A stretch of 53,958 bases of DNA, from positions 1 through 53,958 of IMG/VR virus record IMGVR_UViG_3300008448_000114; one strand, written 5' to 3'. This document shows positions 27,440 to 52,757 of the stretch, one piece after another. Under the pieces are notes generated by a model. The model searched no databases, had not been told where the DNA came from, and saw nothing but the letters and a program-made list of their open reading frames with translations. A program made the position numbers and the translations under genes. The stretch comes from a virus. Taxonomy: Duplodnaviria > Caudoviricetes. How positions within the stretch are numbered: the stretch's first letter is position 1; each line of letters starts with the position of its first letter.

Positions 27440-28414
27440 TTATTCAGAAACTACGTTTTTAAGGGTTTCGTAAAATTCGTTAGCTTCCTTCGTTTTTGTC
27501 ATCGCAAACTCGGTAATAGACTCATACGCCTTCTTACCCAAAGGAATCTCACAAATCACCGCACCATCCTTCCAGCAGGCATATCCTTTCTTCGTAGATA
27601 CATCAATATGCCCATCGTCAATCCCTTTCTTTACAAAGAACTGAACTTTGGAGATAGTGGTTCCGGCAGACTTCATGAAAGCGTCAGGATTAGCACCGGC
27701 CTTATTAGCGTACTCTACACGTACTTTAGCTATCGTTTTCTGCTCTCCGTACTCGTTTGTCATACCAATGCCTAAGTACTGGGCATGAATCATCATATCC
27801 TCTACAGAAGCGTTCATAGAGAAGTTAATAGCCCTTAATCTTGCTTCTTCTTTTTTCAGCTCATTAGATTCGTTTTCTGCTGTATTTACAAGGGTATATC
27901 TTGCTTTCTTATTACGCATACGGTTCTCCTTCTTATCGTAATCGTCGCTGTTAAGTAAGAAGTTCAACAGCGTTCTATTGGTACGAGGAACGCGCAGTAT
28001 CCCATTGTTAAAGATAATATCCTGCTTGTTACGCTGGATGTACTGAGGAGTAAACCCTTCCTGCTCATCCATCCAAATAGAACTTGCTCCACGGATAAGA
28101 CGAATCGTTCTTACGGAGTTGCTTTGTACGTCAAATACAGGCATCTCATTCACCAAAGACTCATAAGACTTAGGCTTAACATCAGATGGCAATAACAGCT
28201 TAAAGACGTACATATCCGGCTCTTTCTGTTGCACCTTAATCTTTTCTTCTGTCCTCTTAATCATGCGTTTTAGCTGTAAAGAATCATCATCTTCAAATTC
28301 TTTAATAGTAGCTTGAGAGGTTGTTCTCTCTTGAGTAACAGCACCTGTGCTGTCATCAAATGCGTTCAATACGGGTAGTTGAACTTGTTGTTTTACCTGT
28401 TTTTTCTCTGACAT
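27440..28414 (-). CDS. Conserved protein downstream of the capsid gene (crAss-like head module)
   Basis: IRLIRGASSIWMDEQ...IIFNNGILRVP...LLNFL. Start at MSEKK, after TATATTTG at 28438-28431. Confidence 0.6.
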   Translation of the reverse strand: MSEKKQVKQQVQLPVLNAFDDSTGAVTQERTTSQATIKEFEDDDSLQLKRMIKRTEEKIKVQQKEPDMYVFKLLLPSDVKPKSYESLVNEMPVFDVQSNSVRTIRLIRGASSIWMDEQEGFTPQYIQRNKQDIIFNNGILRVPRTNRTLLNFLLNSDDYDKKENRMRNKKARYTLVNTAENESNELKKEEARLRAINFSMNASVEDMMIHAQYLGIGMTNEYGEQKTIAKVRVEYANKAGANPDAFMKSAGTTISKVQFFVKKGIDDGHIDVSTKKGYACWKDGAVICEIPLGKKAYESITEFAMTKTKEANEFYETLKNVVSE

Positions 28415-28440
28415 ATTACTTTGTTTGATACAAATATATA

Positions 28441-28500
28441 AAAAAGCCCTCAATTTAAAAAAAGAGGGCGATGATTAACTCTAAACAAAACTTTATGAGA
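28441..28500 (-). ncRNA. Cassette C: stand-alone anti-start-codon sRNA candidate
   Basis: Own TATATTTG box (28512-28505), then CTCATAAAGTTTTGTTTAGAGTTAATC, hairpin GCCCTC/GAGGGC and TTTTT. No ORF. Confidence 0.55.
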
Positions 28501-28527
28501 TACGCAAATATACGATTATATACGAAA

Positions 28528-28586
28528 CAAAAACCCCCGAGTATAAACAAGGGGGGCCAGTAATAGAAAACAGGTAAATCCAATGC
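28528..28586 (-). ncRNA. Cassette D: sRNA candidate
   Basis: Box variant TAATTTTA (28596-28589), arm GCATTGGATTTACCTGTTTTCTATTACTGG, hairpin CCCCC-TT-G-TTTATA-C-TC-GGGGG, TTTTT. Confidence 0.5.
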
Positions 28587-28645
28587 TGTAAAATTACTCC
28601 TATATCAACTATTATTTCAATCTATCAATCAACACATAGCAAAAG

Positions 28646-28691: not shown

Positions 28692-30056
28692 TTAAGCACT
28701 GATACGAACGAAGCGGTTTGCACCGAATACGCGCAGACCTGCATAACACAGGTGGTGTACGTTCAGTTCAGCCACATCGCTGGTAGGACTCTTAGCGAAA
28801 GCACCAGTTTCCCAAATATGAAGGTCTTTACCATTCACGTTGTTGTAAGTGATTTCGATTGAGTTGTAACGCTCTCCAGTTTGAGGGTCTTTACCTTGAG
28901 CCATCGGAACCACGATACCGTAGTTTTTGTACTGATGGTCAGCAGGAGTAGCACCATAAACAGCTTCAGGAGAGAACGGCAGGTACTTCTTAATGTGGAA
29001 GGTATAACCATCCATAGTGATAGAACCGAAACCGTACATAGCAGCAGCTTCTTTGCTACCACCTACAGTACCCCAAAGGATAGCACCGGCATCGTACAGG
29101 TCGAACAGTTCGTCATCCAACTCTTGACGTAAGAAAACGTCAGCAAGAAGGTGATTCTCCATAGAACCTCCGTTGAAATCCAAAGCACGAGTTACTTCGT
29201 GAAGCTTAGCTCTGTCTAAAGAACCAGCAGTATAAGATACGCCAGTACCACGGTTTTCGATTTGATTCAGAAGACCGATAGTGTTCTTAGAAGTAGCAGA
29301 AGCGTTTGTGTTAGTAACGTCTTTACCGAACATCAGAGTAAACTCTTTGTTGTTCATATAACGCTTAACAGCTTCGTCAAGACCTTTGTAAGAGTAGTTC
29401 TCACCAAACCAGATTTCTTCAATCATAGCACGGTCAGTTACTCTCCAGTCTTCACGGATTTCAGAAACGTAGTTCAGAACTTCTTCAACGCGGGGAATCA
29501 GAGCATCTCCTTTAGAAGAAGCTTCACCTACCGCAGCTTGTCCACGGAAGAGAATCCACTCGTTAGCATCCAAACGACCATCAACAGCAGCAGACTCAAA
29601 TTGTTGAGTAGAGCTAAGAGGGCGTACAGTTGCCTGGTGAGCGCCAGCAGAAGTTTTATCAACTGAAACTACTTTACCTTGAATACCGGTAGAAGCGATT
29701 TCAACGATTTCACCAACACGAATAGGAGATTTAGAACCGCTATCGTAGTGAGAGCCGGAAGTCAAAGTGAAAGTAACAGCAGAACCATTGGTTGCGCCAG
29801 TTACGTTAGCTTGAACCTGAACAGCTTGGTGCATTTTACCCAAATCTTCCCAGTGACGGATAGTTTGAGATTTCACCTGTCCTTTAAACCCAAGCATTTC
29901 CAACAGCATAGTGTAGTTTTGAGCACCATACTTGCTGATGAATTTAGGGTAGTACTGAGGCTTTAAGATACTAAGGTCACTAACGATGCCTCTCGTTAGG
30001 CCTGCGCCAGGATTTACAAACGCTGACGGTTTCTCTGAGGCTGAATTGTATGCCAT
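28692..30056 (-). CDS. Major capsid protein
   Basis: 454 aa, follows the scaffold gene, ends in CYAGLRVFGANRFV, biased codon usage, own terminator. Confidence 0.85.
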   Translation of the reverse strand: MAYNSASEKPSAFVNPGAGLTRGIVSDLSILKPQYYPKFISKYGAQNYTMLLEMLGFKGQVKSQTIRHWEDLGKMHQAVQVQANVTGATNGSAVTFTLTSGSHYDSGSKSPIRVGEIVEIASTGIQGKVVSVDKTSAGAHQATVRPLSSTQQFESAAVDGRLDANEWILFRGQAAVGEASSKGDALIPRVEEVLNYVSEIREDWRVTDRAMIEEIWFGENYSYKGLDEAVKRYMNNKEFTLMFGKDVTNTNASATSKNTIGLLNQIENRGTGVSYTAGSLDRAKLHEVTRALDFNGGSMENHLLADVFLRQELDDELFDLYDAGAILWGTVGGSKEAAAMYGFGSITMDGYTFHIKKYLPFSPEAVYGATPADHQYKNYGIVVPMAQGKDPQTGERYNSIEITYNNVNGKDLHIWETGAFAKSPTSDVAELNVHHLCYAGLRVFGANRFVRISA

Positions 30057-32634: not shown

Positions 32635-35025
32635 TTACTGATTTTGTTGTTGTTGCATCATTTGATTCTGCATCATTTGTTGTTGTGCTGCATCATTCTC
32701 ATCTACCATACCTTGTAGCTCATCTACCTGGTCAGGAGTAATACCTTGTTGTGCTAAAAACTCCATCTGAGCCTGTTGTTGCTGTTGTGCTAACGCCTGC
32801 TCTTCCATCTGCTTCTGACGAGCCTTCTCAGCAAAATACCCATCCACTATATCCTTCACATATCCAGTAAGTTCTTTACCCTCCTTGAATGACATCAACA
32901 GCACATCATGTACAAATTTCTGCATATTTTCGTCATTCTTAAATCTTGATGACGATTCATCAATCATTACCTGCATCTTAGCCTTAGCCTCCTCAATAGC
33001 AGCATCTGCCTGCATCTTAGCCTGTGCTGAACGTTCTTGTATCTGTGCGTTCATCTCCGAGTTCTGCTGAGCCTTCTGCATCTCGGTTTGCATGCGTTTG
33101 TTCTTAGCTCTTGTAAGATACAACTCCTGCAACTTCACATTGTCAAGCCTTCTGATTTTAAACGCATCATCAAAGTCAATCATGTTATTTGATATAGCGT
33201 TGTTTGTCATCGACTCAACATAAGCCTTTTCAACATCATCAGGAAGCATCTCTATCTTAAACTCAAAGAACATATTCGCAAGCTCTTTATTGCCGAAGAA
33301 CTCACGATACGCTGTACCACCATACACCACAGAATCATGAAGCAAGATGCCTATTTTCGAAAGCGTCTGCTCAGTAATCTCCAAATAAGAGTCATAGATA
33401 AAATCAGTAGCATTGTTAGATTCGCGGATTTGAGATTCTAAAACACCTAATCCCATCTTGGGATTAACACTTGAGCCTTCCCTGTATTCATTGATACCTA
33501 CCTCATCACGTATCTTAGCCACATAGAAATTATAGACCTGTATAGACGCATTAATTTGGTTAATATTACCAATATTTGGTAATTCATTAATCGGCAAAGA
33601 CCTTCTTTCACCATCCTCATCTACACTATTGTAATATATGTTACCAGTCTGGTCGTAAACCCTTTGAATCTCAAGAGGCTTGACTTGTCCTTGACCTAAA
33701 TCTACTTCCTTCAATCCGGATATGTCAACAGCAATACCAGATGGTCTCATCTTAGCTATTAGTTGCTGTATCTTCATGTGGGTAAGCGTAATCATACGAA
33801 CCGAAGAACTAATCCTTTCAGCAAGAGGGGTATTATTCATACCTATGTTATTAGGCATATACACCGAATAGCTGAAGTAAGCTTTAGACAGCTCTTTAGG
33901 ATTAGAAGGTCTAATCATAGGACTGTTAGGCTGGAACTTCAGCAAACGATTTGATTGAGGAAGATACACACCTGCGTATATAACCTCCATCTCTTTCTGT
34001 ATAACCAATTTATCCTCTCCTACGTTCTCAGGTCTTCCCTTCTTGCGTTCTACATACTTTCTGTTCTCCCTGTTCTTCTCTACCCAAAACATTGGTCTAA
34101 CGGTCTTCGCCTCAAAGAACAGCACCTCTATGGCATAATCGTCATAAGGTCTTGAACCAGGATTCATGTACTCATTCTTCCACTTAAACGTATATGGGCT
34201 AACGCAATCCTTAGATGTCTTAGCTATTTCAAATAGTTGTTCTTCTGTAAGTCCAAATCTCTTACGCAATTCGTACAACTTCATCGACTTACGATGCCCC
34301 ATAACTGACGCATCTGCCATATCGTTCCTCTCTGAATAAGAACAGAAAAAGTCTATCGGATTGATAGCTTCTACGATTACTGTTCCGTCTCCGTCAGCTC
34401 TTGTATAAGTGACTCCATATCCTCCATCTCTAATGTGGCAGAGTAGATTACGTTTAATGTCATTCCAGTTGTTGTTGTGCAGTACCATTGATGCACCTCG
34501 CTCCATGAGTATCTCTTCGGGAGTTCTGTAATCAACGTTGAAGAAGATGTCCAGTTCGTCATAACTTTCAGGTTCAAAAGTTTCTCTGTTTTTATACGTT
34601 CCTAATGCCTCATCAGCCATCTTATTAAACTCAGGCTCAAGCATACGGAACTCAGCCATAGCCTTATCATACTTCTTCTTTTTTATGCTAACAGGGTCAA
34701 CAGCAGTACATCTTGGCTTCTCTCCTCTTTTCATAAAACCACCAATAAGCACCTCCATGAATTTAGGTGCAATCATTGGAGGAGTCCAGTCAAGGTTGAC
34801 ATAAGACTGCTTGCCATCTATATTAAGAAACTGCATGTAGTCTCTCATGTCCTGCCTTCCTGTGGACAGCTTCATGTTCTTAGCTATCTCTACGTTTCTT
34901 TTCTCAAAGTATTCATTACTAACAATAGAATGAACATACTTAGCCATTTTCTCACCAAGTTCGGCATCAGAAACGCCATCCAGGTTGAGCTGAAACTGCA
35001 ATGTTGGATTATAAAATGGAGTCAA
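32635..35025 (-). CDS. Portal protein
   Basis: 796 aa after TerL; NLDWTP....PKF, YDQTG..Y, IRDEVGINE.REGS; Q/M-rich tail. Confidence 0.85.
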   Translation of the reverse strand: MTPFYNPTLQFQLNLDGVSDAELGEKMAKYVHSIVSNEYFEKRNVEIAKNMKLSTGRQDMRDYMQFLNIDGKQSYVNLDWTPPMIAPKFMEVLIGGFMKRGEKPRCTAVDPVSIKKKKYDKAMAEFRMLEPEFNKMADEALGTYKNRETFEPESYDELDIFFNVDYRTPEEILMERGASMVLHNNNWNDIKRNLLCHIRDGGYGVTYTRADGDGTVIVEAINPIDFFCSYSERNDMADASVMGHRKSMKLYELRKRFGLTEEQLFEIAKTSKDCVSPYTFKWKNEYMNPGSRPYDDYAIEVLFFEAKTVRPMFWVEKNRENRKYVERKKGRPENVGEDKLVIQKEMEVIYAGVYLPQSNRLLKFQPNSPMIRPSNPKELSKAYFSYSVYMPNNIGMNNTPLAERISSSVRMITLTHMKIQQLIAKMRPSGIAVDISGLKEVDLGQGQVKPLEIQRVYDQTGNIYYNSVDEDGERRSLPINELPNIGNINQINASIQVYNFYVAKIRDEVGINEYREGSSVNPKMGLGVLESQIRESNNATDFIYDSYLEITEQTLSKIGILLHDSVVYGGTAYREFFGNKELANMFFEFKIEMLPDDVEKAYVESMTNNAISNNMIDFDDAFKIRRLDNVKLQELYLTRAKNKRMQTEMQKAQQNSEMNAQIQERSAQAKMQADAAIEEAKAKMQVMIDESSSRFKNDENMQKFVHDVLLMSFKEGKELTGYVKDIVDGYFAEKARQKQMEEQALAQQQQQAQMEFLAQQGITPDQVDELQGMVDENDAAQQQMMQNQMMQQQQNQ

Positions 35026-35056: not shown

Positions 35057-37093
35057 CTATCTTATGTTACTAATGTCATACGTCTGAACGAACCCCACAG
35101 AGTCCTTCTTTTCTTTCAACACATTCCGTACGTCACCAGCTGCCGCAACAAGCGCAATCATAAAAGCAACGGTAATATCCGACTTGGTTCTGTTGAAATG
35201 GTCGTACTCAAGCATATCCTCAAATATTTCCTTAAAGAACATTTTTTCAGAATAATTATCAACCCAAAACTGGGCCAGCTCAAGCTGTTTATTCAGCGAG
35301 AACGGGTCTTTTGGTGATACACCCCACGTCTGCACCGTCTTGGCTTTCCTGTTAGGGTCAAGCACCGACTTAGGCGTTTTAGTGATAAAGTTCTTATGCC
35401 CTTTGTCAATAAACCACTCAAAATAATCATCATTGGCGTTCTCGTACGTAGCCTTACACCCGAAGTAGTGACAAGCATACAACACCTCTGTATGAAACAG
35501 ATTCTTCGTTTTAGGTCTTCCTACATACATAGCCACCGGCATGCCCGTGTTCTCCGGGTCGGTAGGGTCGTACTGCTCATATACCACAATAACGCCATTA
35601 GAACCCTTACCAACAATAATAGTAGAGGCAAAGGGGTCAACTCCTATCTTATACTGATGCGTGTTGGCCGGCTTCTTACCTGAATCATCATAAATAATTC
35701 CATTAGGGAATCTAGGTTGCTTTAGTAGCAGCCACTTGCCATTCGGGTCATCTCGGTAGTCCACCTTATTTTTTTCATCCCATCCAAACGTAACCCTACG
35801 TATTGATGGCTTATTATCTTTAAGATAATCTAACTGCTGCCTAATCATTTGGATATTAAAGAAAGACTCGGACTCATCAGCAGCAAATGCCTCTTCCTCA
35901 TTAAATGGCATCATCCGTTTCTCCTCCAATCTCATCTCATCATCCTCTATCTTTTCTATCCGCTGACGCAAGTATTCCTTTGCCCCAATCCGTATCTCTT
36001 CAAGCGTAAGCGTAGTGGTCTCTTGCAAAAACTTCTCCTGGTCTTTAGTAGGAGTATCTATGACAGATATGCCATATTTATCAATAAATCCTTCGTACCC
36101 GTCGTATGCCGGTTTAAAGTATCTGTACAGCCCTGATGGAGTTGTCTTATGGAGCAACTGGTTTGATTCGTTCCATAGCGTCTTATATCCTGCTCCTCCG
36201 TCTTTCATCTTGTTAACGGTAGATGGCAGTTCAGCAAACCCTACCTTCCTACTACCTTTCTCCAGCGTCTTTCTCACAATCGACCAATACCGTTGTATAG
36301 GTACATCTGTCGGGAACTTACCGCCCTCATCGACTAACAGCCTTGTATTTCTTTTAGAGTCATAGCTATTTAGCTTTGTATTTTTAAAATCTATCTGCGA
36401 GTTCAGCCCTTCCGGTTTCTCCCTGATAGATGTCTGCTGCTTCTTTTTAACCCTTGACACTTGTTTCATGAACCTAAGTATCTTTTCGGGGTCATCACCG
36501 GCTGCAATATCCGGCTTCATAAACAGCGGCAGGTTACGAAACGCATACACCACCATCTCCTTAAATACAGACTTGGCATCATCACCCGTTTTGGAAACAA
36601 TACCGCACTTGGCCTGCTCGGTAGTAGTGGCTGTATATAGCATATTGGAGGATGCCTGGGAGGTAGCACCTTCCCTACGTGACTTAACGCGTATCACTCC
36701 AAGAACATTAGAAGACTTCTCGCAGTGGTCGAGGAACAGATACCACCTCCTGTCGCAGTCGCGATACTGAGGCTTATCTCCATTTTCAAGGGTGAAATAA
36801 TTTAAGAAGTAGTAGTATTTACCGGTAATATAAGTAGGTTCTCCGCAGTTCAAGAACCAATGCCCATCACGACATTTGACAAGTTCTTTCATGATAAAGT
36901 CCCACTGCTTATCTGTCCATAGTGGGTTGCCATTAGCATCATACTCCAACTCATCAAAGTATTCGGGTATATCGGTATAACGGAAGTATTGTTCTTTGCG
37001 GCTGTACTTACAGTTCTCCATCGTGTACGCTGCCGGTTGTTTCGGCAGGGAGTACTGGATTCCGTACAAACTTACGCTTTCGTTTTTTTGCAT
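35057..37093 (-). CDS. terL: Terminase large subunit
   Basis: ITGKYYYFLNY, Walker-A-like KSRREGAT, Walker B LLVDEGGK, nuclease motifs IGVDP and YENA. Confidence 0.9.
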   Translation of the reverse strand: MQKNESVSLYGIQYSLPKQPAAYTMENCKYSRKEQYFRYTDIPEYFDELEYDANGNPLWTDKQWDFIMKELVKCRDGHWFLNCGEPTYITGKYYYFLNYFTLENGDKPQYRDCDRRWYLFLDHCEKSSNVLGVIRVKSRREGATSQASSNMLYTATTTEQAKCGIVSKTGDDAKSVFKEMVVYAFRNLPLFMKPDIAAGDDPEKILRFMKQVSRVKKKQQTSIREKPEGLNSQIDFKNTKLNSYDSKRNTRLLVDEGGKFPTDVPIQRYWSIVRKTLEKGSRKVGFAELPSTVNKMKDGGAGYKTLWNESNQLLHKTTPSGLYRYFKPAYDGYEGFIDKYGISVIDTPTKDQEKFLQETTTLTLEEIRIGAKEYLRQRIEKIEDDEMRLEEKRMMPFNEEEAFAADESESFFNIQMIRQQLDYLKDNKPSIRRVTFGWDEKNKVDYRDDPNGKWLLLKQPRFPNGIIYDDSGKKPANTHQYKIGVDPFASTIIVGKGSNGVIVVYEQYDPTDPENTGMPVAMYVGRPKTKNLFHTEVLYACHYFGCKATYENANDDYFEWFIDKGHKNFITKTPKSVLDPNRKAKTVQTWGVSPKDPFSLNKQLELAQFWVDNYSEKMFFKEIFEDMLEYDHFNRTKSDITVAFMIALVAAAGDVRNVLKEKKDSVGFVQTYDISNIR

Positions 37094-37730
37094 GCTGATG
37101 TTCTTTTTTCACAAATTCTATAATAGGCTCTACAAAGTTCCTTCCTCTTTCTGTCAGGTCGTACCTATTTCTCGAACCTACTTTTGTTATCCTCATCAAA
37201 TTAAACTGAATCAATCGTTTTGAAAACTTTAAAATAGACGGAATACTTATGCCGGTATCTTCTGTCCACTTTCTTGACGTAGCGTCTCCTTCCTGATGAG
37301 CGCTAATCCACAACAAAAGTATGATTTCAGTATTTTTTAATTTTGTTCTTTTTCTTACAAGTCCTAACTTAGCATATATTCGAGTCCACGTGATTATATT
37401 GTAATTACGCGGATTCGTTTTGTCATTTGGGACCTCCCAGTAGTACTTAGCCCTGTTCCACTCGGTTTTCCGCATTTTTTTTATCTCTTCCTTTTGGAAC
37501 TTCTCGCGTTTGTTTTTCTCTGTTTTAAGCTTCTCTTCCCACTTAGCCATCATTACTCTATAGTTCTTTGCAAGCCCGTTGTTGCGAAGTGTTAATATGC
37601 TAGCCTTTTTGATATGCTTCTGCATCTTCTTCATGTTCCTGTCACGCATATTCTTATTCGTCTTCAGCAGACTTCTTGACTTGGCTCTTTCAACAGCAAG
37701 CTTATAGCGTAACTTATTGAGCATTTCCAT
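37008..37730 (-). CDS. Basic coiled-coil protein with C-terminal MarR-like winged HTH
   Basis: LKNTEIILLLWI...ISIPSILKFSKRL...RNRYDLTERG. Start uncertain. Confidence 0.55.
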   Translation of the reverse strand: MEMLNKLRYKLAVERAKSRSLLKTNKNMRDRNMKKMQKHIKKASILTLRNNGLAKNYRVMMAKWEEKLKTEKNKREKFQKEEIKKMRKTEWNRAKYYWEVPNDKTNPRNYNIITWTRIYAKLGLVRKRTKLKNTEIILLLWISAHQEGDATSRKWTEDTGISIPSILKFSKRLIQFNLMRITKVGSRNRYDLTERGRNFVEPIIEFVKKEHQHAKKRKRKFVRNPVLPAETTGSVHDGEL

Positions 37731-37786
37731 GACCTTCTCTCCGCTATATGTGCGGCTGGCCTTTACGAATATGCGTTCACACTTCT

Positions 37787-38110
37787 TTACTTTTTTAGGA
37801 ACGTCTCCAGCGGATTCCTCGATACTAACGGCTTCTCCTCCTCCTTCGACTCTCCCACTTTGAGTTCCTTCTTTAACCACAGCAGGTTTTGTGCTACGTC
37901 TTTGCTGTCCACCATTGCTTTCCATACGCGTTCAAATGTTTTATCGTTTTTAGATTTAAAGGATACGTATTCTCCGTTTAGCTCTTCTGCAAGCTTTACT
38001 ATCTGATAGTTCAAGGCATGGTACAGTCCTTGCAGTCCGTCTGCCTTATAGGTCTCCAACTCCTTTTCGAGTTCCTCTATCCTTTGTTTCAGTTTTACTA
38101 TATCTGTCAT
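37787..38110 (-). CDS. Small helical protein, terminase small subunit candidate
   Basis: Size and position upstream of TerL only. Confidence 0.4.
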   Translation of the reverse strand: MTDIVKLKQRIEELEKELETYKADGLQGLYHALNYQIVKLAEELNGEYVSFKSKNDKTFERVWKAMVDSKDVAQNLLWLKKELKVGESKEEEKPLVSRNPLETFLKK

Positions 38111-38745
38111 ATTCCAATACGCATTGTTTCGTTTATTTCAAATGTATGGTCTATCGCCATAATGTCTTGTTCTTTGATACGGATGATACGATGCTCACGA
38201 CCTTCATGCGCATACACAACCTCATAGTCAGCCATAGTCTCTGTAATAAGCACATCTCCTATGGCAAATATGTCATATCCTGATGGTGTACCCTTAACTA
38301 CAACCCGGTTGTTTTCTTTCTGTTCATTGATGTCTGTCAGTATAAGAGATGACTTCGGTTTGTAATATATCCTGTCAACTAACAGATAGCCTTCCATTGG
38401 TATTGGATTGCCATTATCAATGTAAAAGAATATCTTATCGGGTCGAAGGATATGTACTTCCAGTTTCTTTTTACCTCCATATACAGAATCTTCATCGGTG
38501 TCGATGGTATCTACGAGTGTATGTTCGGTAAACGAGTTGTGCCAGCAGACGATAGGAGTACCTTCTTTGAGGCTAGTCTTTCCTGGACTTTTGACGATGG
38601 CATTGACAGCATTCTTCTCTCTTTCGTTCCATCCAAAGTCTTTGTCGATAAATAGTTTGATGTCGGTTCCTGCGATGGTGTGGGTGTACTTATCCTCTTT
38701 ATCTACAATAACGATAAGCTCCCCTCTGATTGGTTTGGGATTCAT
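38107..38745 (-). CDS. Tandem GroES-like co-chaperonin
   Basis: Two repeats of P...(L)IV ... V ... (E/I)G(T/D).(I/L), ending IRIKEQDIMAI. Confidence 0.65.
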   Translation of the reverse strand: MNPKPIRGELIVIVDKEDKYTHTIAGTDIKLFIDKDFGWNEREKNAVNAIVKSPGKTSLKEGTPIVCWHNSFTEHTLVDTIDTDEDSVYGGKKKLEVHILRPDKIFFYIDNGNPIPMEGYLLVDRIYYKPKSSLILTDINEQKENNRVVVKGTPSGYDIFAIGDVLITETMADYEVVYAHEGREHRIIRIKEQDIMAIDHTFEINETMRIGI

Positions 38746-38790
38746 TGCTGTTTCTATTTGTCACAAATATAGGAAATTTTGTGACTAAAC

Positions 38791-38853
38791 AAAAACCCCG
38801 CCTAAAAAGACGGGGCGTGTGTTAACCAATTAAACAAACCAAACTATGAAAAG
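38791..38853 (-). ncRNA. Cassette E: 3'-UTR anti-start-codon sRNA candidate
   Basis: Minus strand TTTTCATAGTTTGGTTTGTTTAATTGGTTAA, then CCCCGTC-TTTTTA-GGCGGGG-TTTTT. Confidence 0.55.
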
Positions 38854-39393
38854 TTATGGGTAAACCAAGATTTCGATAGCGTATGCGCTAAGGATACCAT
38901 CTGCTGCCGTACCTGCTGCGCCTGTGTTAACAGTAATTACATCGGCAGATGTTCTTGCTGTTACTACATCTTTTACAGCAGTGATAGCACCAGTGCTACC
39001 AGAAGACATAACAAATGTTTTGTCAGCTGTAAATGCTGCCGCAAGGGTAGCTGTGTAAGTGCCTGTAGAGCCACGAGCCCATACTACAGTACCACCTAAG
39101 CTGTTCTCAAGAACAGTAGCTGTAGGAGCTGAAGTAGATGACTGAGTTACTAATGCACGATAAGCTTTAACTGCTACGTTACCAGCAGGAGCAGAGCTTG
39201 TAACAAGCGACCATACACCTGTAAGTCCAGGGAAAACATCAATGCTATTTGCTGTTCCTGCGCCTAACCATTCAAATATTCCGTAATCTTTTACAAGTAC
39301 GGTATAATTTTCACGACCTGAAATTGTAGCCAGGTCAGCTGTTGTGTCCACGAATCCTTGTTTGTTAGAACGTGGTTTAAATTGTACTGCCAT
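38854..39393 (-). CDS. Virion decoration / head-fibre protein (paralog of 39419-40453)
   Basis: Shared N-terminus KPRSNKQG.V.T.ADLA...GRENYTVLVKD.G.FEW and C-terminus EI.VYP. Confidence 0.6.
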   Translation of the reverse strand: MAVQFKPRSNKQGFVDTTADLATISGRENYTVLVKDYGIFEWLGAGTANSIDVFPGLTGVWSLVTSSAPAGNVAVKAYRALVTQSSTSAPTATVLENSLGGTVVWARGSTGTYTATLAAAFTADKTFVMSSGSTGAITAVKDVVTARTSADVITVNTGAAGTAADGILSAYAIEILVYP

Positions 39394-39418
39394 TTTTTTT
39401 TGTTTTTAAATTTTAATA

Positions 39419-40453
39419 TTATGGGTAAACACGAATTTCTACAGAAAAGTTTCCGCTAAATGTTACGGAACTTGAATTATCTGCTGCTTTTATTGAAGTA
39501 TATCTTACGACAGTATTGCTGATTCTTCTTCCCCAATAATTAAATGCTTCTCCTCCACCTATTGAATTTGATGGCATAACCCATGTTTTCCCAGAAGGAA
39601 ATGCTGTACTTCCTGTCATTGTAAAATTAAAATCAACTTCATCTCTTGTTATTACAATATCTGTAATACCATCTTGGTTTCCATCTCCTATTGTATTTTG
39701 CAATACTGACCAACCTACACCTGGAGAACCTGCTCCTGCTGTCAATATAGCTGTATACACTTTATATGGGAGTCCTGCATTGTTATCTACGTAAGTTTTA
39801 ACAGCATTTTGAGTAGGGTATAAAGTATTGCTAGTACCTAAAGAAGTACTTGTAGATTTATTAGCTACATTTTCAGGAGTATATCCAAGTCCTGCATCTA
39901 AAATATTCCAGTTACCTGCTGTTTGACCAGGAGCATCAGAAAGTGCACGGAAGCTAGTTCCTGTAACTACAGCTGTTGTACCTAAGAATCCATTAGCAGC
40001 ACAGAACCATAGGTCTCCTTTTTTAATAGCACCAGCAGTACCGCTACCACCAGTAGTAGGCCAAGAACCTGGAGAACTTACACTTGGCGTGAAGTTACCT
40101 CTGTCATTTAAAAGACCTACAACTAATGAATCTGCATAAGTTTTAGCGGCTTTTACTGAAGGGTACTTAGTATCACTTGCAGCATCAGCTGTAACAGAAA
40201 TAGACTTGTTTGCAGAATCTTCTGGAGTAAATAACAAATTAGTTCCTTCGCCTGACTGAAGCACTCTGCTCCAGAATCCGTTCTTACCTGCGAAGATATT
40301 TGTGCTGTCAACAGTACCAGTTGGAACCCACTCAAACAATCCTAAGTCTTTTACGAGTACGGTGTAATTCTCTCTGCCTTCTACATTAGCTAAGTCAGCA
40401 GAAGTATTTACGATACCTTGCTTGTTACTTCTAGGCTTTAATATAACTGCCAT
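39419..40453 (-). CDS. Virion decoration / head-fibre protein
   Basis: Paralog of the previous gene, plus a central insert with TPE..ANKS repeats. Confidence 0.6.
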   Translation of the reverse strand: MAVILKPRSNKQGIVNTSADLANVEGRENYTVLVKDLGLFEWVPTGTVDSTNIFAGKNGFWSRVLQSGEGTNLLFTPEDSANKSISVTADAASDTKYPSVKAAKTYADSLVVGLLNDRGNFTPSVSSPGSWPTTGGSGTAGAIKKGDLWFCAANGFLGTTAVVTGTSFRALSDAPGQTAGNWNILDAGLGYTPENVANKSTSTSLGTSNTLYPTQNAVKTYVDNNAGLPYKVYTAILTAGAGSPGVGWSVLQNTIGDGNQDGITDIVITRDEVDFNFTMTGSTAFPSGKTWVMPSNSIGGGEAFNYWGRRISNTVVRYTSIKAADNSSSVTFSGNFSVEIRVYP

Positions 40454-40513
40454 TTTGTTTTTTTTGTAAATTTAAAACTAATCCAACCTATTTATCTGTC
40501 AATCCTTCAACAC

Positions 40514-40912
40514 TTACTTGTCCTTACGAGGCAAATACCACAACTGAGGCCACATACGTACCGTTCCGGAGCTGATAAATGTAATACGCCAGTTCGTACA
40601 TACAGGAGTAATCTTACTGATAAATGCTGTATTTGTAACCGCATTTGTAAGGGCAATGCTGTCAGTAGAGATATAGTTCACCCCATCAAGGCTTTGAGCA
40701 AACACTACCTTGCCGGCAGCAGTACCTGATACGCGACTCAGCACAGGTTGAAATATAACTCCATTCAAAGAACTGGACAGCGTAAGGTTTACAACAGCCG
40801 TATCTGCGTTGATTAAGCTGTCAACACCTACAAATGGTACTGAAATAGCTGCCTGGCTATAACAGAAATTAATTGCAAAAAGTAATACAATAGTGGAAAA
40901 AATCTTTTTCAT
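40514..40912 (-). CDS. Exported beta-sandwich protein
   Basis: Signal peptide MKKIFSTIVLLFAINFCYSQ; TATATTTG box at 40934-40927. Confidence 0.65.
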   Translation of the reverse strand: MKKIFSTIVLLFAINFCYSQAAISVPFVGVDSLINADTAVVNLTLSSSLNGVIFQPVLSRVSGTAAGKVVFAQSLDGVNYISTDSIALTNAVTNTAFISKITPVCTNWRITFISSGTVRMWPQLWYLPRKDK

Positions 40913-40955
40913 TTAAAATGTTTTTACAAATATAATGGAAAATACTTTACCAAAT

Positions 40956-41010
40956 AAAAGTCCCCCCAAGTAGAAACAAGGAGGGAACAGCTTACTTTTT
41001 TATAGACACA
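40956..41010 (-). ncRNA. Cassette F: stand-alone sRNA candidate
   Basis: Full promoter TTTG-N20-TACATTTG, ~25-nt arm, hairpin TCCCTCC-TT-G-TTTCTA-C-TT-GGGGGGA, CTTTT. Confidence 0.55.
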
Positions 41011-41012
41011 AT

Positions 41013-41076
41013 CAAATGTACAACAAAAGTGTTGATAAAACAAATTTGGATAAAATATTTTCTGTTACTAACTTTG
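41013..41076. promoter_or_regulatory. Back-to-back promoters sharing palindrome CAAATTTG
   Basis: Plus: TTTG(41045-48)-N20-TAACTTTG(41069-76). Minus: TTTG(41044-41)-N20-TACATTTG(41020-13). Confidence 0.7.
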
Positions 41077-41081
41077 GTACA

Positions 41082-41415
41082 TGGTATTAAAGCAATTTTA
41101 TATCAAGACACCGAACCCTCTCAGGTTCGTACAGCTTTCCAGAGATAGAGATTTATCCTATCAATCTAAAGCTCAGAAGTCGGATGGTAGCTGTCACCAC
41201 AACATAGACAGTAAGATTTCTCCGATAGTGTCGCAAATGGTTCAGAAACATAAAGACCCTTAGAGGTAACAGCTGTTAAGGATAGAGTAACCCTTACAGG
41301 ATATCAGGGCTGTTACGAAGGTGTACTAACCACGGTTAGCAACGTACGGTCTAAGGCATAAATTCTGAACTAATGTAAACGAAATTCATCCCGTATCTAA
41401 GGGGATACTATGCGC
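41082..41415 (+). ncRNA. Candidate ~330-nt multibranch ncRNA
   Basis: Nested stems GTTCAGAA/TTCTGAAC, AGACC/GGTCT, GTAACAGC/GCTGTTAC, TCGGA/TCCGA, AGCTTT/AAAGCT, CGAACC/GGTTCG. Confidence 0.55.
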
Positions 41416-42019
41416 CTACACCAATACCGTATCTAATAACACCCCATCAAAGCTGTTATTAATACCATCACCCGGTTAGCAGCATCACTACACATAAACC
41501 CCCTAAATTCACCACCCCTCCGCACACATAACAGCTACCCCACACATTAGGTTTTTGTAAAAAAACCGGGTAGGTACGCTGTTAAACAATGGGATTGTTG
41601 GAATTTAAGTGAAATACATGAAGGTTCAGGATAACCCCCTCCCCTCTACCAACATTCCGAATCGGGGAAACGGATTCCGCAGACTGTGTACCTCGTTTTG
41701 CTTCGTTTCGGTTATGCTTCCCCGTTAGCTTCATGCTACTTTGTTAGCTGAAAAAAATCAAACTGATTTTGTATGGCTGATATGTCATGCGGGATGTTTT
41801 GTTATCCCCCCCGCCTAATTAGTACTTTCGTTCTTTTGCATCTCATTAATTTATTAGTGTTTTATTTTACGGGATGTTATGCCATGTCAGGAAGTTATTT
41901 TTTTATGTTTGTTTATTGGATAAATACAGCTAATTATTTTAGTATTATTTGCTAAATAATTTAGTTAGATATTTTCTAATAAAACAGCTTAAAATTTAGA
42001 AAACATTTAATGGCTTTTA

Positions 42020-42052
42020 TTTGGAATGTAGTACATATACTCCTTATCTTTG
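42020..42052 (+). promoter_or_regulatory. Early promoter
   Basis: TTTG-N21-TATCTTTG. Confidence 0.75.
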
Positions 42053-42089
42053 TATCGTTAATTTAATCACTCAAAACAAAACAAATTTT

Positions 42090-47423: not shown

Positions 47424-47449
47424 TCATTAAAAATCAAAACAATTAAACA

Positions 47450-48718
47450 ATGGTAGAACAATTATTCAAGGACATCCTGAGTACGCAGTCGCACTCAGGT
47501 CATGTCGAACGCATGACGCAACTTATCGCAGACTACGCCACATACTTCGGAGCAGATGTACGTATCGAGAGCAACAATATCTACGTCACCAAAGGTATCC
47601 CACTTCCTAATGGCTATCCATGTATCGTATCCCATACCGATACTGTCCACGCAATAGTACCCGACGACGAGTTCAGGGTAGGCTATGACCACGACAACCG
47701 CATCATATACGGATACAATCCTATCAAGCGCGACTTCACCGGCATAGGAGGTGATGACAAGGTAGGCATCTACATCGCCCTCGCTGCTGTCCGTGACTTC
47801 ACAAGTATCAAGGCCTGCTTCTTTCGAGACGAGGAGATAGGTTGCGTAGGTAGTGGAGAGGCCGACTTATCCTTCTTCTCCGACTGCATGTATATCCTGC
47901 AATGCGACCGCAAAGGTAACAAGGACTTTGTCAATCGTATATCATCAACGCCTATATCCTCCAAAGAGTTCCAGGATGACGTAGCTAACATCATCAAGAA
48001 CTATGGCTATGACTTCCACGACGGTGGTATGACAGATGTGTACAAGTTAACAACTCGGCAGGTAGGTATCAGCACAGCCAATATGAGCTGTGGCTATTAC
48101 AACCCTCACTCATCAGACGAACTTATATCTGTCGATGATGTTGACAACACACTGCGTATGGTATATGAGATACTGTGGACACTAGACAAGAGGTACGAGC
48201 ATAAGGTAGAGACTCCGGTATATACTAATAAGAAATACTACTACGACTATGACGATTGGTACACGCCTAAGTTTAATACGCCATCTGCCAAGATAGATAC
48301 TATCGACTCAGTTGATGACTTCGGAGACTACTTAAGTATGCAGGATATGCCGACGGATGAAGACATGAAGAAGATGTCTTATGATGATTTCTACTGCCAT
48401 GCCTTAGCTGTCATGTTCGGATATGAGTACACAGGCAATGGCATCTATTCATTTGAGTCAGGAAGGATTACAAGCTATACATCACTGGCTAAGATAGACA
48501 TTAAGGAGCTAGAGAAAGAGATAGATGACAGCGCTATATGGGAGGCGGTAGAGTTCGCGTCATTCTGCGAAGAGCAAAGGGATATATTGATGGAAGATGA
48601 TAAGCCTAAGTCTGAGTGTAACTGTCAGTCATGTGGTACGGGAATAACTAAAGACCAGCAGAGATGGTATGATGGTGTGTGCGAGGGTTGCTTCCGTAGC
48701 TACCATACGATTCTGTAG
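47450..48718 (+). CDS. M20/M28-clan zinc peptidase with C-terminal Zn ribbon
   Basis: SHTDTVH, GGDDKVG, DEEIG, QCDR, GYYNPHS; CQSC...CEGC. Confidence 0.8.
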   Translation: MVEQLFKDILSTQSHSGHVERMTQLIADYATYFGADVRIESNNIYVTKGIPLPNGYPCIVSHTDTVHAIVPDDEFRVGYDHDNRIIYGYNPIKRDFTGIGGDDKVGIYIALAAVRDFTSIKACFFRDEEIGCVGSGEADLSFFSDCMYILQCDRKGNKDFVNRISSTPISSKEFQDDVANIIKNYGYDFHDGGMTDVYKLTTRQVGISTANMSCGYYNPHSSDELISVDDVDNTLRMVYEILWTLDKRYEHKVETPVYTNKKYYYDYDDWYTPKFNTPSAKIDTIDSVDDFGDYLSMQDMPTDEDMKKMSYDDFYCHALAVMFGYEYTGNGIYSFESGRITSYTSLAKIDIKELEKEIDDSAIWEAVEFASFCEEQRDILMEDDKPKSECNCQSCGTGITKDQQRWYDGVCEGCFRSYHTIL

Positions 48719-48730
48719 CAGTGTTCACTC

Positions 48731-49000
48731 TCACGATTTTTTGGTTGACTTCCCGTTAGCGCCATTACGAGCCCGGTTTTTGTGTTTTGATTCCATAACG
48801 AGCTTACCATTCTTGGTATGGCTCATATCTTTATTATCACCATTACCGTACGTTCCGGCTTCGCGATTAGCTTTATTCAGCTTGGAGCGATATGCTACAC
48901 GTTCAGGAGCTTTGTTATACAGCGCATCGTACGCTGCCTTACGCTTCCTTGCTTCGGGATTCTTATCGTAATACTTTTGAGTTCTTGACTTCTTAACCAT
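48731..49000 (-). CDS. 89-aa basic protein with degenerate HNH-like motif
   Basis: Start ATG 49000 after TATATTTG-TGT; GNGDNKDMSH...KNRARN; fits the gap between two plus-strand genes. Confidence 0.65.
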   Translation of the reverse strand: MVKKSRTQKYYDKNPEARKRKAAYDALYNKAPERVAYRSKLNKANREAGTYGNGDNKDMSHTKNGKLVMESKHKNRARNGANGKSTKKS

Positions 49001-49031
49001 ACACAAATATAATAATTTAAAACAAATCAAC

Positions 49032-49391
49032 ATGGAAGGAAAATTAATCTTCAAGTATGACAGATGGTATGTTGACAAGGTTGACGAAGACCTGCTCATA
49101 CCACTATGTAAGACAGATGATGACTTTATCAAATCCCTTGACGATGAGTATATTGTAAAAGCTGTTACGTCTAGATTGGTAGAGTTTACCATCATTACCG
49201 AGTTCAGCCATCCTGAGCAATTCGAGGGCGTAGCATGGGGTGACGGAGAAATCCAGGCGCTACTCGTGAATAATAGGCGCAATGATACATGGGATGACAT
49301 ATATATGAAGCACCGGCATCTTTCCGATGGCGACTTCATTGATATGCTGTACAGAAACTACTACCCACCTAGAACAAAAATGCCATTTTAA
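49032..49391 (+). CDS. Hypothetical protein
   Basis: 119 aa with a typical leader. Confidence 0.65.
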   Translation: MEGKLIFKYDRWYVDKVDEDLLIPLCKTDDDFIKSLDDEYIVKAVTSRLVEFTIITEFSHPEQFEGVAWGDGEIQALLVNNRRNDTWDDIYMKHRHLSDGDFIDMLYRNYYPPRTKMPF

Positions 49392-49445: not shown

Positions 49446-49541
49446 ATGGAATTTGTCATCATCACAATCGGCATGTTTGCAGCAGGATGTTACGTATGGT
49501 CTCTAATCCTGGAAATTATTGAACACGAACAAACCAAATAA
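49446..49541 (+). CDS. 31-aa single-TM peptide
   Basis: MEFVIITIGMFAAGCYVWSLILEIIEHEQTK, downstream of a near-consensus promoter TTTG(49392)-N20-TATATTGC. Confidence 0.5.
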   Translation: MEFVIITIGMFAAGCYVWSLILEIIEHEQTK

Positions 49542-49542
49542 C

Positions 49543-49788
49543 ATGACTAAGCAAGAGTACCTAATCTACAAGCAGTCCGACCAGATGGCTGTCCTTTACG
49601 AATACTACAAGGAGAGATTCAATAAGTTCAAACACAAGCCCTTCCTTACAAGGAAAGAGTTTGACACATTCGCTCCCATGTGCATGGATGTAAACCAAGC
49701 CTATCATAAGGTATGCCAGCACTACGACAGCGAACTTAACTGCATAGAACTAAGGAGTAAAGAAGGTAAAACATTAATGATTTATTAA
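49543..49788 (+). CDS. Hypothetical protein
   Basis: Start moved to ATG 49543 (MTKQEY). Confidence 0.6.
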   Translation: MTKQEYLIYKQSDQMAVLYEYYKERFNKFKHKPFLTRKEFDTFAPMCMDVNQAYHKVCQHYDSELNCIELRSKEGKTLMIY

Positions 49789-49798
49789 ACAAACAACT

Positions 49799-50431
49799 AT
49801 GACAGCAAATGCAAAGTTCATCAGCGAACTAACAACCAATCTATCCAAGCCAATGCCATACCAATGGCGTGTGCAATCCTTCAACAAGAACAATACAAAG
49901 TGTACCTGCGTAGCGTACATCGACGCAAGACAGGTGATGGATACGCTTGACAAGTACTGTACCTACGGATGGGTAAAGAAGTACTACGACATCAAAGGAA
50001 GCATCTACTGCTCCATCGGTGTAGTAATGCCTGACGGAACTATTATGGCGCGTCAAGACGTAGGCTCAGAAGGTAACTTTGAAGCCGAGAAGTCAGCAGC
50101 ATCCGACGCTTTCAAACGTGCAGCCGTTAACTTCGGAGTAGGCAGATTCCTATACGACCTGGAAATCGTTGACCTGAAAGCAGGAGTAAGCGAGTTCAAT
50201 GGTAAGCAGTATCCATTCCCGGCAGATGATAAGGGTAATAAGATATGGGATATTACGGAGTACATTAACAATATGCAGGGCGTAGTTAATGGCGTACATC
50301 CTCTGCAAGAGGCTTTGTCGAAGCTGTCAGGTATGACGGACAAGGCTAAGGCTATCGAGTGGGCGAAGACTCTACCGGACAGCGTAAAGACGCACGCATC
50401 ATTCCGTCAATCATTCGCTAAACAATTTTGA
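49799..50431 (+). CDS. Rad52/Sak-family single-strand annealing protein
   Basis: AYIDAR.V...LD...W...QDVG...EKSAASDAFKRAAV.FGVGRFLY. Confidence 0.85.
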   Translation: MTANAKFISELTTNLSKPMPYQWRVQSFNKNNTKCTCVAYIDARQVMDTLDKYCTYGWVKKYYDIKGSIYCSIGVVMPDGTIMARQDVGSEGNFEAEKSAASDAFKRAAVNFGVGRFLYDLEIVDLKAGVSEFNGKQYPFPADDKGNKIWDITEYINNMQGVVNGVHPLQEALSKLSGMTDKAKAIEWAKTLPDSVKTHASFRQSFAKQF

Positions 50432-50636: not shown

Positions 50637-50640
50637 AAGC

Positions 50641-50703
50641 ATTGCCGCTTGTAATTATTATTAATCGTTAGTGAGTAATTGGTTACTTAAAGGGGGCGGC
50701 AAT
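50641..50703 (+). other. Long irregular hairpin
   Basis: ATTGCCGC(50641-48)/GCGGCAAT(50696-703) enclosing GTAATTATTA/TAATTGGTTAC. Confidence 0.5.
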
Positions 50704-50705
50704 AT

Positions 50706-50798
50706 CCCGGAAGGCGTATGGAAAGCCGACAATGAGGGTGAACGTGGCCCGTCTGTAAACTCAGTAAATTGTATCAGGTTCGACTCCTGATTCCGGGG
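50706..50798 (+). ncRNA. tRNA-like element with expanded, non-canonical anticodon arm
   Basis: CCCGGAA/TTCCGGG, TCAGG-TTCGACT-CCTGA, GGC-GTATGGAAA-GCC, and ACAAT/ATTGT enclosing 34 nt. Confidence 0.6.
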
Positions 50799-50843
50799 CA
50801 TTTTGGTACTTATAGTACCAATACAAGTCAAAAAATAAACTAA

Positions 50844-51113
50844 ATGGACTATATAATCAATGACCAAGACAAATCAATAGAGCATAACGGAGTAAAGGTA
50901 TTCCCTCCAAGAAAGGAGTTTATGATGTTCTGTTATCTTTTAAACAATCCTAACAGAATCATAAGCAGAGATGAGTTGCTGAAAAATATATGGGATGACG
51001 GCATCATTGTAGAATCAAGAACAATAGACGTACACATGAGGAGGATTAGGGAAAAGCTACCTCACGCACCAATAATAACCAGGAGGTGCTACGGATATAT
51101 GTATAAAAAATAA
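50844..51113 (+). CDS. Stand-alone OmpR/PhoB-type winged-helix DNA-binding domain
   Basis: KEF....YLLNNPNRIISRDELL..IW.....ESRTIDVHMRRIREKL.....ITRR..GY; no receiver domain. Confidence 0.85.
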   Translation: MDYIINDQDKSIEHNGVKVFPPRKEFMMFCYLLNNPNRIISRDELLKNIWDDGIIVESRTIDVHMRRIREKLPHAPIITRRCYGYMYKK

Positions 51114-51147
51114 TAAAACGATTTACTCACTATTAAACAAAACAAAC

Positions 51148-51426
51148 ATGACATCAGAAACTCGCGGTCTATTCGTTGACGACCCATCAAAACTCAACGA
51201 GCTTACTATTACAATCCATAAGACGTACTTGGATGCCTGGAAGTCTATCGACAAAGACTATATCCACTTCATCGACATTCAAATCTATAAAGAAGATATG
51301 GTAAATATTACATTCGAATACAACCCTAACTTCATATCTTACTTGCTTAGAGGTATATTCTCGGCAGGATTAAGATACGGTATGGATACAGCATTCGGCA
51401 TATCTAAAAAAGCAATAAACCAATAA
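51148..51426 (+). CDS. Hypothetical protein
   Basis: 92 aa with a typical leader. Confidence 0.65.
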   Translation: MTSETRGLFVDDPSKLNELTITIHKTYLDAWKSIDKDYIHFIDIQIYKEDMVNITFEYNPNFISYLLRGIFSAGLRYGMDTAFGISKKAINQ

Positions 51427-52389: not shown

Positions 52390-52757
52390 AAGACCTAGTG
52401 ATGATTCCGCTGATGTGGCTACCGCCTAAGGTGCTAAGGCTTATCAGCTCCAAAGAGAAAGCCCTTCGTAACGATGGGATGCACGACTTCTTTACCGATG
52501 AGATGTCAGGCGAAGGCGACATATACTACATTGATACTGTCGGCAGGCTCATTGTAGAGCGTATCAAAATGTCGGTTGTAGAAGATGCTGTTCTTACCGG
52601 AGTGTCAACCACGATGCTGGTATGCGACATCAAGCACAACCAAATCATGTTCCCTATGCTTGAAAAAGTATATTGTGAAATTCGTGGGAAAAGATGTACC
52701 TTAGAGCTGTCATTTGATGACGGACTATTATCACAGGTAAATTCAATTATTGTATGA
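52377..52757 (+). CDS. Hypothetical protein
   Basis: 126 aa, ATGA overlap with the next gene. Confidence 0.6.
   Translation: MDRVEDLVMIPLMWLPPKVLRLISSKEKALRNDGMHDFFTDEMSGEGDIYYIDTVGRLIVERIKMSVVEDAVLTGVSTTMLVCDIKHNQIMFPMLEKVYCEIRGKRCTLELSFDDGLLSQVNSIIV

Follow-up and report, generated by a model that had tools for sequence, protein, structure and literature searches.

On the minus strand of a phage genome recovered from metagenomes, the spacer behind a gene for a 179-amino-acid (aa) protein contains a 37-nt G/U-rich segment, which we refer to as the arm (38817-38853, minus strand). It makes up the 3' untranslated region (3'UTR) of that gene, between its stop codon and an intrinsic terminator. 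The stretch analysed here, hereafter the window, is the complete linear IMG/VR record IMGVR_UViG_3300008448_000114, 53,958 nt long with an estimated completeness of 75%, and is a 54-kb piece of a lytic phage from freshwater metagenomes. A DNA similarity search of deposited phages with the window returned no match. The DNA runs that hold the window are mostly labelled freshwater or lake metagenome, and some fungus metagenome or plain metagenome; no RNA run is listed as a holder of 37000-42000, and a single metatranscriptome from the sample of one of these DNA holders contained next to none of the window's words and is uninformative on expression.

The 179-aa gene (38854-39393, minus strand; stop codon 38854-38856) is an open reading frame (ORF) of the late module with no function assigned: its protein has no match in Pfam, PHROG or PDB, and its Atlas feature leads are all below 0.9. 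The leaders of this gene, of the capsid gene and of the upstream 344-aa gene form one repeat family (D8), which suggests strong expression of the 179-aa gene. The terminator starts 37 nt past the stop codon (hairpin 38795-38816 with a T run to 38790, minus strand). Its 9-pair stem, with six G-C pairs, closes a 4-nt loop, and it has the expected features of an intrinsic terminator, stem covariation included. In the centroid fold of the terminated RNA the arm is single-stranded, and it is predicted to be mostly unpaired.

Beyond the T run lies the promoter of the next gene (38760-38793, minus strand), with a -33 element (38790-38793) and a perfect -7 box (38764-38771) placed 18 nt apart. The box ends 18 nt ahead of the ATG at 38745, and by its sequence the promoter conforms to the Bacteroidota type. 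A 14-nt A-rich leader precedes this ATG, which opens a 212-aa gene (38107-38745, minus strand) whose codons 3-6 are predicted to be able to pair with the arm in a read-through RNA. An 8-nt inverted repeat (38778-38785 / 38760-38767), partly kept in relatives, surrounds the -7 box and may be an operator. A permissive Rfam scan of 38700-38900 gave at best 22.1 bits against a threshold of 42, with no family membership. None of the repeat families listed for the window takes in 38746-38853, and the other terminator-promoter units of the window differ in sequence from this one. No host-type -7 box was found upstream of the arm within the end of the 179-aa gene. We also considered the arm as an in-frame read-through extension of the 179-aa gene and rejected this; the indels of its variants are not multiples of three.

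Genes run on the minus strand from 1 to ~41 kb and mostly on the plus strand from ~42 kb onward, and by comparison with other phages we label the minus-strand set as late and the plus-strand set as early/middle. The plus-strand leaders are composed of 52% A and 19% C and contain just 4% G, and therefore have no Shine-Dalgarno signal. Perfect -7 boxes of the Bacteroidota primary sigma factor consensus precede minus-strand genes at seven places (the -33/-7 consensus is that given in the accessible part of PMC6847099). Because the leaders lack Shine-Dalgarno signals and these boxes stand ahead of the minus-strand genes, the host is probably a member of the Bacteroidota, in keeping with the A-rich leaders and the host-type -33/-7 boxes.

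The original prediction had singled out a 23-mer in the plus-strand text of the arm (38827-38849), whose ATG has its complement in the arm at 38846-38848, as matching several early and middle gene starts, and had interpreted it as a consensus anti-leader RNA. The 23-mer and all four of its matches were recovered exactly. They comprise 11 + 8 nt flanking a 2-nt gap at 49784-49802, 19 of 21 positions in the leader ending at the ATG of 51148, and two exact 11-nt matches, one at 49528-49538 and one at 47440-47450, within the leader (47425-47455, plus strand) of a peptidase-like gene (47450-48718, plus strand). For a test restricted to leaders, we drew up a curated set of 23 plus-strand gene starts and their upstream sequences from the list of ORFs, these being our own calls rather than annotation, and took 36 nt around each. 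A 9-mer is common to the 37-mer 38817-38853 and six of the 23 leaders, a result equalled by 1 in 1000 mononucleotide shuffles. Among natural windows, none of 8175 in plus-strand text and none in the minus-strand text of 1-41 kb shares a 9-mer with at least six leaders. Shorter words behave alike, with an 8-mer common to the arm and 7 of 23 leaders and a 7-mer to 13 of 23 (8 of 1000 shuffles in each case).

Predicted pairing energies also single out the arm. Against the 23 early leaders its mean predicted duplex energy is -12.55 kcal/mol, with 15 of the leaders at -10 or better, compared with -6.65 ± 0.95 for mononucleotide shuffles of the arm (0/300 as good) and -8.19 ± 0.91 for dinucleotide shuffles (0/200). 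Sampled late-strand 37-mers (n = 3414) average -5.60 ± 1.40, and only the arm itself attains its value; the best of 917 other noncoding late-strand windows reaches -11.21. Ranked among 2732 late-strand 30-mers for pairing with the window's early leaders, the arm comes first. It also prefers early leaders to late ones (-12.55 versus -8.98 on 29 late leaders; Mann-Whitney p = 0.0002). The strongest single duplex, at -20.9 kcal/mol, forms with the leader and start (49774-49804, plus strand) of an Erf-like single-strand annealing protein gene (49799-50431, plus strand), and was equalled by 3 of 200 dinucleotide shuffles. The leader of a 92-aa gene at 51148 (51123-51153, plus strand; -18.0 kcal/mol) comes second, and that of an 81-aa gene at 49543 (49518-49548, plus strand), which contains one of the 11-nt matches, gives -17.6 kcal/mol.

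When the antisense of each leader was paired with the other 22, the mean was -9.23, and just one of the 23 equalled the arm. Because so few true leader antisenses do as well, "consensus anti-leader" is accurate as a description of the sequence: on this evidence the arm is the reverse complement of the A/C-rich early/middle leader consensus, start codon included. The consensus claim of the original prediction is thus borne out by a mean over 23 leaders that neither the 300 and 200 shuffles nor the 917 noncoding windows matched.

The arm and its surroundings recur in relatives. Proteins related to the 179-aa protein are encoded at 71 viral and 78 metagenome loci, and close relatives lie on 4 viral contigs and ~14 metagenome contigs, with the stop codon within 17 loci; L092, which reads directly into another gene, and L098, whose stop is absent from the locus, were left out. 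The 17 loci reduce to 10 spacer types, counting the window's own. A G/U-rich tail with two or three copies of one pentamer (two G, three T) is present in 8 of 10 types (11 of 17 loci), and seven of these eight types retain the complement of a start codon. All 10 types have a hairpin followed by a T run, with stems that differ in sequence and compensatory changes that keep the pairing, and all 10 keep the -7 box of the downstream promoter. Contigs in two further runs add more variants of the G/U-rich tail.

Three relatives, G001, G002 and G003, were taken as whole records, with leader sets drawn automatically (ATG ORFs of at least 60 aa, some of them false starts). Their early leaders have the same consensus as the window's. 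In G001, the homologous 3'UTR pairs with the phage's own leaders better than any of 454 sampled windows (rank 1/1147), and in G003 one window in 874 does as well (rank 2/2197).

These observations would fit an RNA that acts in trans on early leaders, and a number of others weigh against such a role. Searched over both strands of the whole window, the 23-mer has eight gapless matches of at least 16/23, against 4.1 ± 2.2 in shuffles (22/300 equal), and none of at least 17/23. Exact 9-, 10- and 11-mers number 17, 8 and 3 against 16.0, 4.1 and 1.1 in shuffles, counts that were reached by 213, 68 and 76 of 500 shuffles, respectively. The original prediction had named equally good matches from shuffled A/C-rich sequence as evidence to the contrary, and the outcome is divided: over the whole window shuffles are as good, and at the 23 leaders they rarely are. 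An unrelated A/U/C-rich tail replaces the arm in 2 of 10 types (6 of 17 loci, G002 among them), so the arm is dispensable, and the G002 tail ranks near the bottom against its own leaders, with 586 of 594 windows equal or better.

Further points on the same side come from crossing arms with leaders. When four arms were crossed with four leader sets, own pairs did not stand out in the resulting 4 x 4 matrix, which thus shows no arm-leader covariation: the window's arm yields -12.6, -13.7, -11.6 and -11.0 on the four sets, and the G003 arm fits G001 leaders better than G003's own. Because arms pair about equally well with foreign leaders, the fit is a generic one of G/U to A/C. Mean pairwise identity among seven arms is 0.745 (composition-matched shuffles, 0.632 ± 0.014, with 0/200 sets as high), and the corresponding value at four-fold degenerate sites of the adjoining gene is 0.62; given their two-letter composition, the arms are by this measure conserved no better than silent sites. 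They vary by duplications and indels, like slippage-prone low-complexity DNA. What persists in 8 of 10 types is the class of motif, and a conserved or covarying seed, as expected of a small RNA (sRNA), was not found. The leader sets derive from our own ORF calls, those of the relatives containing false starts in part. The arm-leader duplexes are A-U rich, and their energies leave out target accessibility and competition. The arm starts 1 nt past the stop codon, so that terminating ribosomes would mask part of it. Its predicted partners include the start of the downstream 212-aa gene as well, and read on the plus strand it is just as much a copied early leader or promoter.

Much of this is what would be expected if the arm were a functionless spacer or recombination linker, that is, low-complexity DNA at a mosaic junction whose complementarity to leaders is a by-product of composition and shared ancestry. 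The 179-aa gene of the window is 96% identical to that of L085, yet their arms are only 0.65 identical, and 66% identical to that of L095, yet with arms 0.82 identical. In the spacer and at the beginning of the next gene, the window resembles L093 and L095, in which the 179-aa gene is 66-71% identical. Judged by these switches in similarity, the spacer is a mosaic module with a junction at the 38854 stop codon, and in several contigs from other strains 75-132 nt of it are skipped or replaced. A G/T-rich minus strand is also seen in the rest of the window's noncoding DNA. The arm's changes by unit duplications and indels at a rate near that of synonymous sites, the lack of covariation, the two armless types and the shuffle-like whole-window counts fall on the same side. 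Composition alone nevertheless fails to give the fit, because pairing with the leaders is much poorer for dinucleotide shuffles and for the other 917 noncoding windows of the late strand, and a mere linker would not be expected to retain a start-codon complement in seven of eight G/U-rich types. We regard a functionless linker as rather unlikely, although it is the alternative to be taken most seriously. In one relative (L001 3538-3620, in G001), ~70 nt present in L085 are missing, among them the terminator's 3' half, the promoter and the downstream start codon, which could reflect a natural deletion or an error of assembly.

A further difficulty for a mere linker is a second, unlinked element with the same property and with a promoter box and terminator of its own. 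On the minus strand past the capsid gene (28692-30056, minus strand; Pfam SU10_MCP), a terminator (28672-28646) is followed by a ~90-nt spacer, a second terminator (28553-28534) and a perfect -7 box (28512-28505). After this box come a ~30-nt G/U-rich body and a third hairpin with T run (28469-28440), past which a further -7 box (28438-28431) leads into the next gene. The unit from the first of these boxes onward (28441-28512, minus strand), which we call the sister element, would specify a candidate small RNA of ~60 nt (28441-28501). Its layout of -7 box, ~30-nt anti-leader and terminator recurs in five distinct variants, and its RNA is predicted to fold into a weakly structured 5' part and the terminator.

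For pairing with the phage's own early leaders, the sister body ranks 1/2197 in G003, 1/1497 in G002 and 7/2732 in the window, where it pairs best with the leaders at 42090 (-19.7) and 49446 (-18.4). Like the arm, it prefers early to late leaders (-10.0 versus -7.5, p = 0.016). The sister element resembles a stand-alone small RNA, as a candidate, and lends independent support to anti-leader RNAs, including in G002, which has no 3'UTR arm. We do not claim common descent of arms and sister bodies; their layout is similar, but the alignment is too low in complexity.

Upstream of the second terminator, a conserved block at 28540-28588 (minus strand) complements positions +7 to +33 of the next gene (28381-28432; start 28414). 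This pairing between block and gene start covaries in all five variants, with differing sequences in three lineages. In this phage group, then, predicted antisense pairing to the start of a gene has genuine covariation behind it, a parallel close by that counts in favour of the anti-leader reading of the arm. The block could be either a cis structure of a 5'UTR or a second small RNA. Within it, 11 nt complement the leader of a gene that starts at 31201, and its counterparts in G002 and G003 contain 12-13-nt complements of the leader of the 212-aa gene homologue.

The existence of this covarying block makes a comparable cis role for the arm worth weighing, in which the arm of a read-through RNA pairs with codons 3-6 of the 212-aa gene, so that only transcripts from the internal promoter are translated. 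Both the minimum-energy and the centroid fold of 38700-38880 pair the arm with the gene start (z = -2.7; 2/200 shuffles equal). Matching A/C-rich codons are present in all eight G/U-rich types and differ in the two armless types, which constitutes one phylogenetic event. The helix would be just ~8 + 4 base pairs, however, and own and foreign partners show no covariation: the window's arm gives -14.6 with its own gene start against a mean of -13.4 with foreign ones, and that of L097 gives -15.9 against -17.2. Such a cis structure therefore seems to us an improbable explanation of the arm.

Scarcely more probable is that the element belongs to the opposite strand, either as a displaced copy of an early/middle upstream region, be it a phage-specific promoter, an initiation region or both, from which antisense transcription would run into the 3' end of the 179-aa late gene, or as a micro-ORF. 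The arm's match extends over the entire upstream consensus, with the box found 14-21 nt ahead of many early ATGs included, and an ATG follows; the tested 9-mers occur on the plus strand only, both in the window (e.g., 5 versus 0) and in G001 (6 versus 0). In addition, on the plus strand each of the two anti-leader elements points into a late gene that is presumably expressed strongly (38854-39393 in one case, the capsid gene in the other). Against this, no host-type promoter box was found nearby on the plus strand, and a genuine plus-strand gene start is not apparent, the frame after the ATG having 5 codons in the window and 8, 13 or 14 in relatives, in other registers. Scored position by position as a gene start, the plus-strand ATG of the 23-mer ranks only 42 or 59 among 2046 ATGs, which makes it leader-like and not outstanding. 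The sister element, moreover, is bracketed by a minus-strand -7 box and terminator in 5/5 variants.

The box itself is a feature of the early region. Beyond being A-rich, many early leaders of the window (42-54 kb) and of G001, G002 and G003 have a short conserved box 14-21 nt ahead of the ATG, most often where the intergenic gap is larger, and an A/C run comes after the box. The box could be a phage-specific promoter or processing site and not only an initiation signal. A search of the window and four relatives for the single-subunit RNA polymerase family gave no match; control genomes likewise gave none, so the result is uninformative.

Least likely among the alternatives, in our view, is a protein-binding site on RNA or DNA, for example for a phage regulator that reads the same motif in the early leaders. 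The motif occurs in two or three tandem copies and is strictly strand-specific, and the window encodes small DNA-binding proteins, namely an 89-aa winged-helix protein (50844-51113; Pfam E = 6e-18) and a weakly matched DnaA-C-like helix-turn-helix (within 52754-53191). Nothing links these proteins to the motif, however, and at this locus the motif is found ahead of a terminator instead of at a promoter.

The reading we favour, and hold tentatively, is that of a late-strand anti-leader RNA acting in trans on early/middle initiation regions. It starts from what can be seen directly at the locus: the position of the arm, the terminator, the promoter, an exceptional complementarity and persistence in relatives. 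Transcription of the arm, its release, pairing in vivo and any effect on translation are steps that we infer from sequence. Two properties of a regulatory small RNA are present in silico, a terminator common with the parental mRNA and an unpaired seed complementary to initiation regions. Because seed conservation or covariation was not found, the arm qualifies as an sRNA candidate only. What stands of the original interpretation, that the RNA is released from the 3'UTR of a late mRNA, is the location in a late-gene 3'UTR directly upstream of a terminator hairpin whose stem carries compensatory changes; the lack of covariation, the fast turnover and the 6 of 17 loci without an arm speak against the rest.

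Under a trans-acting mechanism, the single-stranded tail would pair with unstructured early/middle leaders and their AUGs as late mRNA builds up. The effector could be the full late mRNA or a processed 3' fragment that retains the terminator hairpin. Pairing would block initiation, because ribosomes of these hosts need an unpaired A-rich initiation region, and would thereby help to switch early synthesis off. According to the part of PMC6847099 available to us, initiation in Bacteroidota relies on unstructured A-rich leaders. The unit at 28441-28501 would act likewise, from its own promoter. That both late-strand RNAs mirror one leader common to nearly all early and middle genes and globally shut off early translation, as an RNA counterpart of T4 RegA/RegB, is a broader proposal and somewhat more doubtful. 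The anti-leader RNAs might possibly also serve host shut-off, because host leaders are A-rich too.

If real, the anti-leader arm would be a variation on already known types of regulatory RNA. The 3'UTR-derived sRNAs of enterobacteria share the terminator of their mRNA, need processing by RNase E as well as Hfq, and have well conserved seeds. Their place is that of the arm, from stop codon to intrinsic terminator with a single-stranded seed before the hairpin; their seed is conserved in sequence, whereas the arm is conserved in kind only. Within the host phylum, the accessible sections of PMC7366714 describe the sRNA GibS, which pairs with initiation regions via a long unstructured seed, and report 21 UTR-derived sRNA candidates in Bacteroides thetaiotaomicron. 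As far as those sections go, the host phylum is the same, GibS pairs around the start codon through a seed that is long, unstructured and AT-rich, and candidates ending at the terminator of a parental mRNA are among those reported. GibS, however, is host-encoded and intergenic, with a 5' seed and two validated metabolic targets, whereas the arm is a phage 3'UTR with a many-target consensus, and the sequences are unrelated. The 3'UTR-derived sRNAs and pairing at the start codon of the GibS type are the closest in form.

The closest in function, on the portions of PMC3014915 open to us, are the RegB endoribonuclease and the RegA translational repressor of T4, two proteins whose action at initiation regions inactivates many early mRNAs. 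What is shared is a general post-transcriptional shut-off through a feature common to initiation regions. The T4 factors are proteins that act on Shine-Dalgarno or AUG-proximal sites in Escherichia coli, whereas the candidate here is an RNA directed at A/C-rich leaders without Shine-Dalgarno signals. The phage antisense RNAs lambda OOP, aQ and P22 sas, as presented in the accessible portion of PMC12197685, repress phage genes by base pairing, as proposed for the arm. They are cis-encoded, match one gene perfectly and mostly concern the lysis-lysogeny decision, whereas the arm is encoded in trans and pairs imperfectly with many genes.

In genome dynamics the closest parallel, judging from the available part of PMC2839356, is with the PeSL cassettes of T4-type phages, which likewise place a stem-loop terminator and a strong host-type promoter between genes at a mosaic junction. 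Here, at a single junction, the closest partner by identity changes at the stop codon, and the spacer is replaced in other strains. PeSLs are conserved repeats, many per genome, and as described there have no anti-leader arm, whereas the cassettes in the window are not repeats of one another.

Elsewhere in the window, the minus-strand module encodes, in addition to the capsid protein, a portal protein (32635-35025, minus strand; PHROG E = 4e-71) and a virion structural protein. It also encodes a giant 3459-aa protein (7958-18337, minus strand) whose sole match is weak and sub-threshold, residues 1663-1714 resembling an ADP-ribosyltransferase domain of polyvalent proteins. The plus-strand module further encodes a PD-(D/E)XK nuclease, and those of relatives encode primase/helicase. 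No tRNA (ARAGORN) and no Rfam family at gathering threshold were found in the whole window, and permissive Rfam scans of three of its regions returned nothing above sub-threshold matches.

Three further regions stand apart from the anti-leader elements. Between the late and early modules, ~800 nt (41264-42089) lack a convincing gene, have a strongly G/T-rich minus strand and gave no Rfam match; this may be a control or origin region. Inside the early region, a perfect -7 box on the minus strand (49004-49011, within 48731-49011) lies ahead of an internal ATG of the frame 48731-49339; it may mark a small, basic gene on the opposite strand, with a promoter overlapping the leader of the plus-strand 49032 gene. 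In a 200-nt gap at 50640-50843, one stretch looks like the T-arm and 3' end of a tRNA, and this gap yielded no tRNA by ARAGORN and no Rfam family even at a permissive threshold.

In the literature searched, with subscription journals and supplements outside the search, no virulent phage is described whose early-to-late switch is timed by a consensus antisense RNA. If the proposal is true, early-to-late timing in a virulent phage would be set by a consensus antisense RNA instead of a protein, apparently as the first case. It would also show that translation can be addressed collectively in bacteria without Shine-Dalgarno pairing, and engineered genes in Bacteroidota would gain an off-switch that is compact and portable. 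If it is false, the locus would still illustrate cleanly that regulatory complementarity can be mimicked by leaders and spacers of low complexity.

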